A stretch of DNA of 64,000 bases, taken from positions 64,001 through 128,000 of the IMG/VR virus record IMGVR_UViG_3300031718_000001. The stretch is one strand, 5' to 3'. The notes beneath the pieces are model-generated. The model had not been told where the DNA came from, made no database searches, and saw only the letters and a program-made list of their open reading frames with translations. Positions 20 to 15,685 of the stretch are shown here, piece after piece (within the stretch, counting starts at the first letter, position 1; every line of letters starts with the position of its first letter). The DNA is from a virus. The position numbers and the translations under genes were made by a program.

Positions 20-430
20 ATGACGATGATGGACCAGAACCGGGTCGCCTCGGTAATGAACAACATCCTTGAGGGCGGGTCGTTTTCTGCTTGGCCGACC
101 GCACTGCACCTGCGGCTGCTGACCGCGATCGGCAGCAACACCTCCAACGGCACCGAGGCCACCTCCGGCAACTGCCCCGGCTACGCCGCCGGCGGCAACG
201 CCATCACCTTCGGCGCTAACTCCTCCGGAACCTCGGCCAGCTCCAGCGCGCCCTCCTGGACCGCCACCGGATCCTGGGCCACGATCACGGCGATCGAGAT
301 CTGGGACACCGCGGGCACGCCGCTGCGCTGGTTCGAGGGGGCGCTGACCGCCTCGATCACCGGAGTGGCCAACGGCGACACCGTGCAGTTCGCCACCGGG
401 GCGGTCACGCTCAACGCCTCTACCTGGTAA
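20..430 (+). CDS. Virion structural protein (small fibre/minor tail type)
   Basis: GGAGG RBS; WATITAIEIWD...GDTVQFATGAVTL resembles a common small phage virion protein family. Confidence 0.55.
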   Translation: MTMMDQNRVASVMNNILEGGSFSAWPTALHLRLLTAIGSNTSNGTEATSGNCPGYAAGGNAITFGANSSGTSASSSAPSWTATGSWATITAIEIWDTAGTPLRWFEGALTASITGVANGDTVQFATGAVTLNASTW

Positions 431-4536: not shown

Positions 4537-9201
<4,665 letters not shown>

Positions 9202-10531: not shown

Positions 10532-11170
10532 ATGATCAACGAGATCCAGGACCAGATGGCGGAAATCCGCCGGCTAGCCGGCATCAAGCGCCACAGCCTC
10601 CAGCGGGACATGGTAGACGGATCCCACACCCTGAGCAGCGCCCAGATGCGCATGGTGCTCGCTCACCTGAGCAAGTGCCCGGACCTCCCGATGGCCCCCA
10701 AGCCCGCAGTGCCGGCCGCCCAGCCCCCGGGTAGCGCCTACATCTCCGGCCCGGCCGGGTCCGGCGAGGCCCGTATCCGGCAGGGGCCGGCTGCCCGCAC
10801 CACCCTGCCGACCCTGGCCGACCTCAAGGACGTTCCGGCCGGCTACTTCGCCACCGACTCGCGTACCGGCAACAACGACCTCGACTTCTGGCGGGTGGAT
10901 AAGCCGGCGAAGGGCAAGTGGGCCGGCTACTCGTTCGCCGTCCGGATCCTCGGCGGCGGCGACGGCAGCTCGATGCGCACCATCAAGCTGGACAACATCC
11001 AGATGCGGCTCGCCCTGGTGGCCATCCGCGCGGCCGGGTTCGAGGAGGCAGGCGACGCGTTCGCCGACGCCATCCGCCGCTGCAAGAAGTGCGGCCTGGT
11101 CCTTACCGATGAGCTGTCGCGCGAGCGTCGCATGGGCATGAGCTGCTGGAAGAAGTACGGCCAGAACTGA
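10532..11170 (+). CDS. DUF6011-like Zn-ribbon protein
   Basis: C-terminal CKKCGLVLTDELS..RMGMSCW. Confidence 0.6.
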   Translation: MINEIQDQMAEIRRLAGIKRHSLQRDMVDGSHTLSSAQMRMVLAHLSKCPDLPMAPKPAVPAAQPPGSAYISGPAGSGEARIRQGPAARTTLPTLADLKDVPAGYFATDSRTGNNDLDFWRVDKPAKGKWAGYSFAVRILGGGDGSSMRTIKLDNIQMRLALVAIRAAGFEEAGDAFADAIRRCKKCGLVLTDELSRERRMGMSCWKKYGQN

Positions 11171-11188
11171 GCAACTAACCCCGAGGTG

Positions 11189-11244
11189 ATGCCCACCTCC
11201 CGGTCGCCCCCAGAAGGAAAGAAGGGCGACCGGGAGGTGGGCAT
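11189..11244 (+). promoter_or_regulatory. Perfect 21-bp hairpin hiding the protease-gene RBS, late motif at its loop
   Basis: ATGCCCACCTCCCGGTCGCCC (11189-11209) / GGGCGACCGGGAGGTGGGCAT (11224-11244); TTG start at 11245. Confidence 0.7.
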
Positions 11245-14200
11245 TTGCGTAAGTACGCAAGCCTGGAAGTGCTGGAGTCCTGGCGGGTTCCGCAGCAGGC
11301 AGGTCCCGCTGGCCTGCGGAAGGCGGCCCACCGGGTCGCGTTCGACTACACGCCGCGGGCCGGGTATCTCTACGTCCGGTCGAGGATGATCTCCTCCCGG
11401 ACCAACGACAACCATGACACCTTCCCCGCAGGCGAGATCGAAAAGGGATACCGGACGTTCCTGGGCAAGCCGGTATTCATCAACCACCACAACGCAAATC
11501 ACCGGCGCGCTCGCGGGGTGGTCGTCGCTGTCGCCCTGCACCGTGACCGCAACCCGGACAAGAGCCCCGACACCTGGGTCGAGGGGCTGATGGAGATCGA
11601 CGCCCAGCGCTTCCCGAAACTGGCCCAGGCAATCCTGGCGGGCAAGGTCAACCGCACCAGCATGGGCGTCGATGTCGAGTGGTCGCGCTGCTCAGCATGC
11701 GGGAACAAGGCCACCTCCCCGGCTGAGTACTGCCACCACCTGCCAGCACTCAAGGGCAAGAAGATCCGCAAGACCAACCCGGCTACCGGCAAGGTCGAGG
11801 AGCGGCTGATCCACGAGATCTGCGCCGGGTTGTCGTTCTTCGAGAACTCGCTGCTGGTCGAGGAGCCGGCTGACCCATCGGCTTATGTCCTTGATGCACC
11901 TGATGCACGTGGTCTACGAGGTATGTCAGGGTTCGACGTGACTCCACGTACGGCCAGCGCGGATCGAGGCGATGGCCTGGTCACTCACTCCGTACCGGCG
12001 GCCAATGTCCCCCAGGGTGAGCTGCCCTCTTCGTGTGCTTCCCTTCCCAACCGCCACCTGGGGAAGCAGTTCACGCTTGATAACCCGAACGTCTGCTTCG
12101 GTAAGCGTGGCGAACGGGTTCCTGGAGCCCGGCAGGCTGCGCCCCTTGGCCACCATGTCGGCGGAGTTGAAGGCGTTGGTGCCCAGGAGCCAGTGCAGGG
12201 GGTTCATGCACGGTTTCCAGTCGCAGGCGTGGCAGACCACCTGGCCCGGCGGAATGGGACCGCGCACCAGTCTCCATCCGTACCGGTGAGCACGGACACT
12301 CGACCGCTTCGAGTCCGACAGCGAGAAGCGCGGGTATCCGCTGTCAAAGAATCCTCCCGTCCACGGGTTGCAGAATCCCGGTCCAGCCGTGAAGTCGATC
12401 GAGGCGAAGTACCGCTCGATCTCCGGGGCCGTCCTTATGAAGCGTCCGTCCAGTTCGGACCTGCTGACCATGGTGTTAATACTACCGCCTACTTCCTGGG
12501 CCGGCCCGATGCCCGCGGCCTGGACAAGACGGCCGCGGCCAAGCGCGAAGGCGGCGACCACCCGTTCTTCAAGGAACACCCGGTAAGCGCTGCCAATATC
12601 GTTGCCGCTTACCACGACACCACCGACGACGAGAAGTCCCTCGGCGACCGGTGGTATGCCGATGCCCACCACGTCGCAAAGGGGATCGCCGGAGGAGATG
12701 CAGCCAAGGGAGCCGGGCTGCTGTCCGCCTACTCACCGCAGACGGCATGGCCGGTCAACATGTTCAACGCCAGCCGGGCGGCTCAGGGCGATCCGCCTGG
12801 ACCCGGCAGCGGCGCCATGGGCACGCAGCAGAAGTCGGCGATGCACATCCTCGGCGGCGAGCATCACTCGCAGGTGCTGAAGGCCCCGAAGACAGCCGCC
12901 TTCGCTCACCTGATCGAGCACGGCGGAGATACGGCGGCCGACGAGAAGAACGGCACGCACAAGGTCGTTGTTGACCGGCACGCGCTGTCGGTCGCCGTCG
13001 GCCGCCGCCTGGGCAAGGAGGAAGGCAGCAAGGCTCCGCTCGGCCAGACCCAGCACTACGAGCACGTCGCCCAGGCCTACCGCGATGCAGCAAGCCTCCT
13101 GTCCGATGCCACCGGGCGGAAGATCAGCCCGCACCAGGTTCAGGCCGCTACCTGGCTGCGCCAGATCCGCAAGAACCATGAAGAGGACAACTCCGGCAAG
13201 GGCGGCGGAGGCCTCGGAGCCGGCCGCGGCCGGGTGCAGATGCAGAACAACTCCAAGACCAGGTGGGAGCAGCATCACAAGCAGCACCATCCCGGCGGTA
13301 TCGCCGAGGAGAACATGCACTATCACGGCAGGCGGGTGCTGGCCTACGGCGAGACCCGGGTGCCGCCGCAGGTGGACACACTGCGAATGGAGGAGTGCCC
13401 GGTCTGCGGCGAGCACGACGTGTGGTCCGGCGAACGCTGCCCCGTGTGCGGATTCATCGTCCCGCCCAGCCTGTTCCGCGATCCCGACGTGACCAAGGCC
13501 CAGCAGGTCCGCCAGGAGCTGGACCAGGAGGGCGAGGTCGTCACCCAGCCGGGCGCTCCCGGTGACCCGGCCACGCAGCAGATCGGCTCCGGCGAGGATG
13601 CCGACAACCAGCTCATGAACCCGGACCAGGTAGCCCCCGACGGGACGCCAGGCGTCCAGGGCGAGGGCGGCCCGGTGCCCGCGGCTGACACAGACGGGCT
13701 GCCGCCGCTAGCCCAGCAGGGCGAGCCAGGTGACACGGGCGAAGAGGCTCAGGACGAGCAGGCCGAGGAGGACGAGGAGGCTGACGCCGAAGAGGAGGCC
13801 GAGGGCCAGGAGCTGGAAAACCAGGGCGAGGAAGCCCAGCCCGGCGTGCAGCCGGACCTCATGTGCTCCGCGTGCGGGGCCGCTTTCGCGACCGATATGG
13901 CCGCCCAGCCGGGTACGCCGTGCCCGGCCTGCCGCCAGGGGTCGCTGCAACCTGCGGGTGGACCCCCAGAAGGTACAGAAGACCCCGACGCCGAGGACGA
14001 AGAGGACGAGGACGAAGAGATGGCAGGAAGCAAGACGGGCGCCGCGCTCGCTCGCGCTCAGTCGCACCGTATCGCCGTCCTGACCGCCGAGAACGAGGTC
14101 CTGACGGAGCAGCTCCGCTTCCTCGCCTCGGCCGCGGGCGTAGACCGGCACCTGGACGCGATCCGCTCGCAGGTGCTCCGCAGGCACGCGGATGTGCTCA

Positions 14201-14985
14201 ACCCGGCCAGCCCCGTGCCGGACCCGCCCGAGGCCCCGGCAACCGAGAGCACCGAGCAGGCGCTCCAGCCGCTGGCCCAGGATGACCCGTCGCGGCCGGG
14301 TGCCACGCCGGGCGCCAACGCCGGGGTCGCAGCCGAGCAGATGACTACGGCGATCACGCCGGGAGTCGAGATGCAGACTCCGCCGGCCACCAACCTGATC
14401 GACGTGACGGCACCGGTCACCGGCACCAACCCGAGCCAGGACGGCGGCGTGCCGATCCAGCAGCGGCGGATCGAGACCGATGTGAGGGTCGATCCTGATC
14501 CGCTGAAGGCTCACGGGCCTGGCATCGGCGGCCTGGGCGACAACGGCGCCGCCTTCCCCTGGATGCTGGAGGCCCAGCAGCCGCAGGGCCAGCAGCGCCA
14601 GGGGGTTCAGACCGGCCAGGGGATGCGCGCTGCTGCGCTCAATGGCGGCAGTCACCTCGCTCCGCCGGATGAGGCAGCCACCGCCAACCGGACGTTCGCC
14701 TCGATCCGGCTGGCCAGGCTGCGGATCGCCACCGGCTCGGTGCAGGGCGATGAGCTGATGGTCGCCGAGCGGATCGAGAAGGACGCCTCGCTGCCGACGG
14801 CGCTGATCGAGCACGAGATCGCGGTGCTGTCCCGGATGCCGCAGCAGCCGGCCTACCCGCAGCAGCGGCAGATGCAGCGCGCCGGGGCTGCCAGGCAGGC
14901 ACCGTCGCTCGCCTCGGTCGGCGCCTCGATGGGATACGCGCCAGCGGCCATGGACGACATGGACGGCGCGGACCTCTTCCTCTGA
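11245..14985 (+). CDS. Capsid maturation protease polyprotein (protease + insertion + glycosylase-like domain + scaffold-like C-terminus)
   Basis: KPVFINH, TSMG and FFENSLLVEEPADP motifs of prohead serine proteases; two genes upstream of MCP; acidic and Zn-ribbon C-terminal half. Confidence 0.7.
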   Translation: MRKYASLEVLESWRVPQQAGPAGLRKAAHRVAFDYTPRAGYLYVRSRMISSRTNDNHDTFPAGEIEKGYRTFLGKPVFINHHNANHRRARGVVVAVALHRDRNPDKSPDTWVEGLMEIDAQRFPKLAQAILAGKVNRTSMGVDVEWSRCSACGNKATSPAEYCHHLPALKGKKIRKTNPATGKVEERLIHEICAGLSFFENSLLVEEPADPSAYVLDAPDARGLRGMSGFDVTPRTASADRGDGLVTHSVPAANVPQGELPSSCASLPNRHLGKQFTLDNPNVCFGKRGERVPGARQAAPLGHHVGGVEGVGAQEPVQGVHARFPVAGVADHLARRNGTAHQSPSVPVSTDTRPLRVRQREARVSAVKESSRPRVAESRSSREVDRGEVPLDLRGRPYEASVQFGPADHGVNTTAYFLGRPDARGLDKTAAAKREGGDHPFFKEHPVSAANIVAAYHDTTDDEKSLGDRWYADAHHVAKGIAGGDAAKGAGLLSAYSPQTAWPVNMFNASRAAQGDPPGPGSGAMGTQQKSAMHILGGEHHSQVLKAPKTAAFAHLIEHGGDTAADEKNGTHKVVVDRHALSVAVGRRLGKEEGSKAPLGQTQHYEHVAQAYRDAASLLSDATGRKISPHQVQAATWLRQIRKNHEEDNSGKGGGGLGAGRGRVQMQNNSKTRWEQHHKQHHPGGIAEENMHYHGRRVLAYGETRVPPQVDTLRMEECPVCGEHDVWSGERCPVCGFIVPPSLFRDPDVTKAQQVRQELDQEGEVVTQPGAPGDPATQQIGSGEDADNQLMNPDQVAPDGTPGVQGEGGPVPAADTDGLPPLAQQGEPGDTGEEAQDEQAEEDEEADAEEEAEGQELENQGEEAQPGVQPDLMCSACGAAFATDMAAQPGTPCPACRQGSLQPAGGPPEGTEDPDAEDEEDEDEEMAGSKTGAALARAQSHRIAVLTAENEVLTEQLRFLASAAGVDRHLDAIRSQVLRRHADVLNPASPVPDPPEAPATESTEQALQPLAQDDPSRPGATPGANAGVAAEQMTTAITPGVEMQTPPATNLIDVTAPVTGTNPSQDGGVPIQQRRIETDVRVDPDPLKAHGPGIGGLGDNGAAFPWMLEAQQPQGQQRQGVQTGQGMRAAALNGGSHLAPPDEAATANRTFASIRLARLRIATGSVQGDELMVAERIEKDASLPTALIEHEIAVLSRMPQQPAYPQQRQMQRAGAARQAPSLASVGASMGYAPAAMDDMDGADLFL
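11878..12483. mobile_element. 606-bp in-frame HNH insertion with a recoded duplicate of its target
   Basis: SAYVLDAPDARGL at the left edge duplicates TAYFLGRPDARGL just past the right edge; atypical + strand codon usage inside. Confidence 0.75.
11926..12471 (-). CDS. HNH homing endonuclease, antisense inside the protease gene
   Basis: CNPWTG..SGYPRF..RAHRYGW..VCHACDWKPCMNPLH..GTNAFN plus C-terminal HTH (IGRRYGVSDQAIASIRAGRTW); ATG at 12471. Confidence 0.85.
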   Translation of the reverse strand: MVSRSELDGRFIRTAPEIERYFASIDFTAGPGFCNPWTGGFFDSGYPRFSLSDSKRSSVRAHRYGWRLVRGPIPPGQVVCHACDWKPCMNPLHWLLGTNAFNSADMVAKGRSLPGSRNPFATLTEADVRVIKRELLPQVAVGKGSTRRGQLTLGDIGRRYGVSDQAIASIRAGRTWSHVEP

Positions 14986-15082
14986 TGACCTACGCCGACG
15001 TGATGCCTTTCCCGCCTCCGGCCCCGGAAGGAATAGCAGGAGGCCGGCAGGCCCCGGTCCTTGAAGAGATGAGGAAGACGCC

Positions 15083-15685
15083 GTGATCCGCACGTACCTG
15101 TCGAACGACTACGTGAAGCGCACGATCCGGCCGCTGTTCGCGTGGACGCAGGCGACGCCAAAGCCATGCTTCCTGGACCCGGCCTGGACCCGTGCTATCC
15201 CGATCTGGCCCGGCTTCGGATTCGTCCGTACCGGAGGCGACCTGGTTGCGCCGGCTGGCGCTACCAGCTCCCAGATGGGCGGCAAGACGATGAACGCCGC
15301 CACGACCCAGACCCCGGTCTACGGGCTCGGGGCGCTGTACGTCGGCGGCGACGGGATCGACGAGCTGCTGTACGCCGGCATCAATGCCTTCGCAGTCTGG
15401 GTGCTAGGACCAGATGCGGAGTTCGAGATCCTGGCTCCCGCGTTCGACGCCACGCAGACCTGGACGGACCCCTCGGACGGCTCCGGCGCCGCCCTGGTGG
15501 GCATCTCCCTGGCCGGCAGCAACCAGGGCATGCTCATCCCCTGGGCCTCCACAGGCAACGTGAGCGCGCCGGTCGCCCGGCTGCTCAAGGTCAACTCCTC
15601 CACCAAGCTCACCATCGGGGGCCTGACTGCGTTCAGCGCTGCCGAACTCGCCCTGGCCACGTCGAGCGTCACCGGCCGGGACTAA
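15083..15685 (+). CDS. Probable capsid decoration/cement protein
   Basis: Between protease and MCP; 200 aa; late motif upstream. Confidence 0.6.
   Translation: MIRTYLSNDYVKRTIRPLFAWTQATPKPCFLDPAWTRAIPIWPGFGFVRTGGDLVAPAGATSSQMGGKTMNAATTQTPVYGLGALYVGGDGIDELLYAGINAFAVWVLGPDAEFEILAPAFDATQTWTDPSDGSGAALVGISLAGSNQGMLIPWASTGNVSAPVARLLKVNSSTKLTIGGLTAFSAAELALATSSVTGRD

Follow-up and report, generated by a model that had tools for sequence, protein, structure and literature searches.

On the usual view, a homing endonuclease gene cannot reside in an essential gene unless it has an intron, an intein or an intergenic site. Phages have free-standing HNH homing endonucleases and intronless homing (T4 mobE, the seg genes, I-HmuI-like enzymes), with gene-splitting insertions and the mobA/gene 60 bypass cassette among the known cases. 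The ShiLan domain is an out-of-frame HNH insertion in the DNA methylase genes of cluster F1 mycobacteriophages, described in a paper in which antisense cases go unmentioned (Arsenault, Gosselin and Gogarten 2025, PMC11855218). Endonuclease open reading frames (ORFs) that run antisense to their host gene have been published only inside inteins: as antisense LAGLIDADG endonucleases (Gorbalenya 1998; Gogarten 2002), and as a VSR-like endonuclease ORF in actinophage inteins (10.1101/2025.01.02.630785). Here we describe an insert with an HNH gene on its minus strand that lies inside the plus-strand gene for a probable head-maturation protease of an uncultured soil phage. The window that we analysed is a stretch of 64,000 nucleotides, positions 64,001 to 128,000 of IMG/VR record IMGVR_UViG_3300031718_000001, a complete genome of ~165 kb with terminal repeats; positions below are those of the window.

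Like the ShiLan insertion, the insert conceals an HNH ORF, leaves the host frame free of stops and has no detectable intron or intein. The two also share a disjunct distribution among close relatives, actinophage hosts and a proposed leaderless translation of the HNH gene, which the ShiLan authors put forward for their case. The ShiLan HNH gene, however, lies on the same strand as its host, in the third frame, with a GTG start and in a non-essential methylase, whereas the window HNH gene is antisense and pairs codon on codon with a head-protease polyprotein gene. A further difference is that the window cassette brings a conserved -10 box of its own, and that the adjacent host motif is recoded and in some lineages duplicated. 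With the antisense-endonuclease inteins it shares an endonuclease gene opposite a host frame that stays open, but in those cases the splicing domains of the intein remove the junk peptide, and the window insert has no splicing blocks. Likenesses to the free-standing phage HNH endonucleases are the HNH_3 type, the conserved target DNA of an essential gene, the presence/absence polymorphism, and target-sequence differences in carriers that suggest immunity and co-conversion. Those genes are intergenic, split their target or need bypass, whereas the host ORF here is single and would be read straight through. Our literature search found no description of an antisense HNH gene in a host gene without a splicing element. 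The window case joins two known ideas, an antisense endonuclease and the lack of a splicing element; new relative to the known systems are the essential-looking head gene as host, the conserved putative promoter and the recoded target copy.

The locus comprises the following features (aa, amino acids; HTH, helix-turn-helix):

11245..14985, plus strand: host gene, a probable protease polyprotein encoded by a single unbroken ORF of 1246 aa with a TTG start.
11878..12483, no strand assigned: mobile insert of 606 bp (202 codons), missing from empty alleles.
11926..12471, minus strand: gene for the HNH homing endonuclease (181 aa, TGA stop), whose C-terminal part is probably helical and HTH-like.
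11878..11916, plus strand: recoded motif copy on the cassette side, protease-proximal, SAYVLDAPDARGL.
12484..12522, plus strand: native motif copy with G/C-ending codons, at which the host sequence resumes, TAYFLGRPDARGL.
12484..12479, minus strand: putative -10 hexamer of the TANNNT type, TAGTAT, which follows a CGG triplet and stops 7 nt short of the HNH ATG.

We checked the limits of the insert by mapping contigs of public soil metagenomes to it. One contig, in run X5 of another soil study and with flanks ~91% identical to the window, joins position 11876 to 12484 with one G between them. The resulting junction, GAC CCG|ACC GCC TAC TTC, translates as PADP-TAYFLG, which is the insert-free allele that the original prediction had anticipated. 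This junction and the ORF list also agree with its claim of a 606-bp, 202-codon insertion in a continuous 1246-aa ORF. Runs X2 and X3, from a third study, cover both junctions of the HNH-bearing allele and differ from the window little or not at all, so the occupied allele is real and not an assembly chimera. We collected 24 related loci from IMG/VR; about 18 distinct related alleles lack the insert and read ...EDPADP-TAY[FLV]LGxPDARG[LM]xKAA... uninterrupted, each as a single continuous ORF of 1000-2000 aa. Within the protease gene, the insert junction marks the 3' edge of the DNA that is most conserved, and conserved DNA of this kind is the usual target of homing endonucleases.

The same HNH gene occupies the same site in seven further lineages (L009, L017, L018, L019, L039, L044 and L045), making eight with the window. 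We took L037-L040 as one lineage, L039, and found L044 and L045 through a protein-database search with the host-frame junk peptide. The seven HNH proteins are 59-78% identical to that of the window, and identities among all eight span 48-78%. In every lineage the HNH gene is antisense in register 0, and the host ORF is open through it, with a length of 1083-1767 aa. Occupied alleles lie scattered among empty ones on a protease-domain tree; this pattern takes 6 changes, of which well-supported branches force at least 3. The correlation between HNH and protease distances is only weak (Mantel r 0.43, p 0.07); L045 and L019, for example, are 85% identical in the protease and 57% in the HNH protein. 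The scattered carriers and these mismatched distances point to repeated gain, loss or exchange, as fits a homing element. The protease alleles of some empty relatives are 88-94% identical to those of carriers.

The HNH and host frames are exactly opposite, codon on codon ((11926-11245) mod 3 = 0), and only 60 nt of the insert (48 + 12) lie outside the HNH ORF. The HNH_3 family (PF13392) scored 25.6 bits on a six-frame match (cut-off 24.8) and 22.8 bits on the 181-aa protein, and the latter matched PHROG HNH endonuclease families with E-values of 9e-20 and 2.7e-19, and others to 1e-9. In tblastn searches the protein had matches in more than 1000 phage records, with 35-39% identity to hundreds of annotated phage HNH endonucleases. 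Residues H81, C83, D84, C88, N90, H93 and N102 are invariant in five HNH homologues. An AlphaFold2 (AF2) model built from a five-sequence alignment was poor, with a predicted local distance difference test (pLDDT) score of 42; its helices at residues 125-171 scored ~70-79, and the C-terminal part is modelled as a probable helical, HTH-like DNA-binding region. Neither the HNH alignment nor the single protein sequence found a usable match in the PDB. The claim of a complete 181-aa HNH and HTH protein at 11926-12471 on the minus strand is therefore upheld by the HNH_3 and PHROG matches, with the HTH-like part only probable. Gene callers on public data call the continuous host ORF and miss the antisense HNH gene.

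A genome-wide search found no second copy of the window HNH gene. The only other HNH gene of the genome (PF01844, E-value 1.3e-12) is free-standing and lies outside the window, at G000:C1:29292-29933 on the minus strand. It adjoins a 549-aa gene on the same strand with a C5-methyltransferase-like VGNAFPPPVA motif.

Among lineages, the ratio of nonsynonymous to synonymous divergence (dN/dS) is 0.20-0.39 in the HNH frame and 1.0-2.2 when the same alignment is read in the host frame. Differences fall mainly at third positions of HNH codons (1236, versus 715 at first and 612 at second positions), and synonymous divergence (dS) between the eight lineages is 0.7-1.8. These substitution patterns indicate that the HNH gene is a working gene under purifying selection in all lineages, and that the host-frame peptide is an unconstrained passenger, required only to lack stops. 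The peptide matched no Pfam family (aa 211-412, E-value up to 5) and no PHROG family. It is predicted to be disordered: in the AF2 model residues 192-470 have no secondary structure and pLDDT below 50, although a shallow alignment accounts for part of this low score and to that extent weakens the prediction.

The two motif copies of the window are identical at 23 of 39 nt. Counted from the Pro codon at 11875, 12 of the 14 codons of the first copy end in A or T, versus 6 of 60 upstream. All carriers are enriched for A/T-ending codons among the 14 codons after PAD, which lie beside the HNH stop, with counts of 12, 4, 4, 8, 4 and 9; empty alleles have a median of 0-1, which is significantly fewer than this range of 4-12 (Mann-Whitney p 0.0009), and in the four high-GC hosts the enrichment is local to this position. 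Downstream of the HNH gene, the window and L045 have a full native-style second copy, L009 and L017 have a decayed copy that still reads D-x-R-G-[LM], and L018, L019, L039 and L044 have none. In residues and codon style alike, the downstream copy of the window agrees with L003, the nearest empty allele, and with the X5 contig; the upstream copy would therefore be the one that arrived with the cassette. By analogy with free-standing phage homing endonucleases, the recoding would mark the recognition site, give immunity and travel by co-conversion. The recoded copy named in the original prediction is thus real, while the resistance to re-cutting that was attached to it belongs to this inferred part.

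Two further observations concern the motif. The recoded copy contains a tandem 9-nt repeat at 11890-11907, CTTGATGCA CCTGATGCA (LDA PDA), which the native copy lacks. At L015:6622-6680 (IMGVR_UViG_3300047585_000133), an HNH-free allele has a cassette-style motif, CCT TCG GCT TTC GTC CTT GGG ACT, reading PSAFVLG, whose Ser is shared with the carriers L017, L044 and the window. Recombination between the two motif copies may have removed the HNH gene here and left this motif as a footprint, or the allele may be immune to the endonuclease.

When the minus-strand sequences upstream of the HNH gene are aligned, each of the eight lineages shows a TANNNT hexamer whose end is exactly 7 nt from the ATG (TAGTAT, TAGAAT, TATGAT, TAGAAT, TAAAGT, TACAGT, TAACAT and TAATAT). 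Every hexamer is preceded by CGN/SRN or TGN, and the surrounding sequence is not conserved; in the window, the first T of the hexamer pairs with the first base of the native ACC codon. TANNNT is the actinobacterial -10 consensus, and the triplets before it are of the kind preferred there; in M. tuberculosis the consensus lies 7-12 bp upstream of transcription starts, with no -35 element and with abundant leaderless mRNAs (PMC3898074). We infer from this arrangement that the HNH gene is transcribed from its own promoter as a leaderless antisense mRNA whose first base is the A of the ATG or its neighbour. The box emerged from the lineage alignment; a scan for sigma-70 promoter and terminator consensus sequences found nothing.

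Taken together, we consider it probable that the insert is a non-splicing HNH homing-endonuclease cassette, with the host protein read through it and carrying a passenger peptide. The HNH enzyme would cut empty alleles near GAC CCG|ACC GCC, at the conserved 3' end of the protease, and repair of the break would copy in the cassette and co-convert the recoded motif codons with it. Carriers would then be protected from cutting by these codons or by the split site. The host mRNA would remain unspliced and the ribosome would read the reverse complement of the HNH gene, producing a disordered passenger peptide of ~200 residues in a tolerant linker after the protease domain. Relatives carry unrelated modules right after the motif, showing that this linker takes very different inserts. 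Only cassettes without stops in the opposite frame would persist at such a site, and GC-rich codon usage would make them easy to come by. Of the original proposal of non-splicing homing into an essential gene, the core is sustained by the empty allele, the eight open lineages, the 60 spare nucleotides and the lack of an intron or intein signal; its idea of protease cleavage sites fared less well, as set out below.

Several observations weigh against this reading. The HNH dS values are as large as those of the protease, recent transfer is not shown, and long residence with repeated loss accounts for the data equally well. Sliding identity upstream of the insert revealed no co-conversion tract common to HNH-bearing alleles; each carrier is nearest its own empty neighbour, right up to the junction. 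Open opposite frames are also common here: in long genes, 44% of the stretches of 202 codons have an open opposite frame, and the free-standing HNH gene (G000:C1:29292-29933) has one of 253 codons. For one HNH copy, an open opposite frame arises by chance with a P of 0.19-0.45 under the codon usage of the genome. The claim that both strands are open thus describes the sequence correctly, but for a single copy it is near the base rate, and only the joint result of the eight lineages is significant. Since the frames are directly opposite, the only HNH codons that would put a stop into the host frame are TTA, CTA and TCA; together these make up 0.71% of codons in the 165-kb genome (GC 68%; GC at third codon positions, GC3, 0.81). 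Examining HNH homologues for stop avoidance on the plus strand, as the original prediction had suggested, we found none of these codons in 129 distinct Leu/Ser codon states of the eight lineages, versus 4.3-6.7 expected (P 0.001-0.012, a range that depends on the gene set used as codon-usage reference and that counts related sequences as only partly independent). The flanks of the insert outside the HNH gene are likewise in frame in all eight. The joint absence of stops and the in-frame flanks argue that the host frame is kept open. We therefore regard it as improbable that the open frame is a GC-rich accident that is not needed, with the downstream domains made from an internal start or the gene defective or dispensable. 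The base rates and the open frame opposite the free-standing HNH gene are what such an accident would predict, but the joint result speaks against it, as do the continuous ORFs of the empty alleles, the completeness of the genome with its terminal repeats, the recurrence of the allele in another study, and the continuous ORF given by public gene callers.

Removal of the passenger segment, rather than its retention, could be achieved at the RNA or the protein level. Self-splicing, by a group I or group II intron or by an intein with an antisense endonuclease, would have precedent in the antisense endonuclease ORFs of actinophage inteins cited above, and HNH genes are often carried by introns. 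The insert itself makes this very unlikely: the 48 + 12 nt outside the HNH ORF leave no room for a ribozyme core or intein splicing blocks, 181 of the 202 codons are antisense to the HNH gene, the ends vary by lineage (HGVN|T, HALH|S, HGVYFS), and the host-frame peptide has a dN/dS of at least 1 and no HINT or intein match. An Rfam search of 11000-13500 with E-values up to 1 found no intron and one chance small RNA match. RNA splicing, moreover, would not maintain an open frame, and the open, in-frame insert in all eight lineages thus speaks against an intron. The earlier statement that no intein termini or intron core are evident is borne out by these results. Less remote, though still unlikely, is that the passenger peptide is translated and then cut out by the prohead protease at flanking sites, for example at or near the ...PDARG[LM] copies. 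The host is itself a protease polyprotein, its relatives conserve ARG[LM]-x-KAA[SA] just past the protease domain, and four of the eight lineages keep at least D-x-R-G-[LM] downstream of the HNH gene (the window and L045 in full, L009 and L017 in part), but the other four, L018, L019, L039 and L044, have no downstream copy. We rejected RTAS, which the original prediction had compared with native KTAA as a protease site: P-R-[ST]-A-S is the forced antisense reading (reverse complement) of A-G-R-T-W, a conserved motif in the HNH C-terminal part, and its conservation is therefore uninformative on cleavage. Least likely of all is that the HNH protein is a domesticated phage function, such as a packaging-associated nuclease of the head module. 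Its gene is intact and under purifying selection in all eight lineages and sits among head genes, but about 18 distinct close relatives manage without it, including those with protease alleles 88-94% identical to carriers', and its insertion point is a precise one within conserved coding DNA. HNH proteins that serve in packaging are normally encoded by separate same-strand genes beside the terminase.

A more elaborate form of the homing-cassette reading, which we regard as a long shot, is that the cassette is a self-contained repair kit. The recoded codons would restore the C-terminal segment of the protease and confer immunity, the junk peptide bracketed by motif copies would be cut out by the very protease that the cassette interrupts, and the leaderless antisense promoter would be built in. 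If true, this would be a proteolytic stand-in for intein splicing.

ShiLan, the single example published, is joined here by the window case, which suggests that GC-rich phages can hold a nuclease gene backwards and in frame, because the reverse complement of such a gene rarely has stops. It also carries a warning for annotation: such antisense genes escape gene callers, which give only the long host ORF. For experimental work, the locus offers eight diverged carriers, an empty site known to the base, a conserved -10 box from which the transcription start is predicted, and a recoded target copy from which the recognition site and immunity are.

The host polyprotein has these recognizable parts:

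aa ~25-211, plus strand: probable protease domain, matching phrog_18299 'head maturation protease' with an E-value of 1.6e-22.
aa 449-639, plus strand: DUF7178, E-value 6e-36.
Other parts: Zn-ribbon-like CxxC pairs and an acidic, scaffold-like tail.

In the PHROG search the polyprotein also matched phrog_2774 (E-value 9e-57); Pfam matched no protease family to it, the PHROG matches notwithstanding. Residues 25-213 are 45% identical to gp97 (1286 aa) of the cluster C mycobacteriophage LinStu. A nucleotide search of a cultured-phage collection found no close relative, and the only counterparts there are cluster C-like protease domains at 45% aa identity. Based on these matches, the host gene probably encodes a phage head-maturation protease polyprotein, and it is essential-looking. 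The AF2 model of the protease, with a core at pLDDT 65-78, was too weak for a fold search.

The polyproteins of relatives L003-L026 are 1040 to 2042 aa long. In these relatives the segment after the ...ARG[LM]xKAA motif, ~70 nt past the PADP codons, is hypervariable and filled with unrelated modules, several of which have CxxC...H zinc-ribbon-like motifs. Judged by this variability, the linker after the protease domain seems to be an insertion hot spot.

Opposite the polyprotein gene, the minus strand also contains ORFs at 12733-13416 and 13708-15093 (227 and 461 aa), which, like many other antisense ORFs here, are probably GC3-driven artefacts. Upstream of the protease, a plus-strand ORF of 1554 aa at 4537-9201, with no Pfam match at E-values up to 0.01, probably encodes a large virion or cargo protein.

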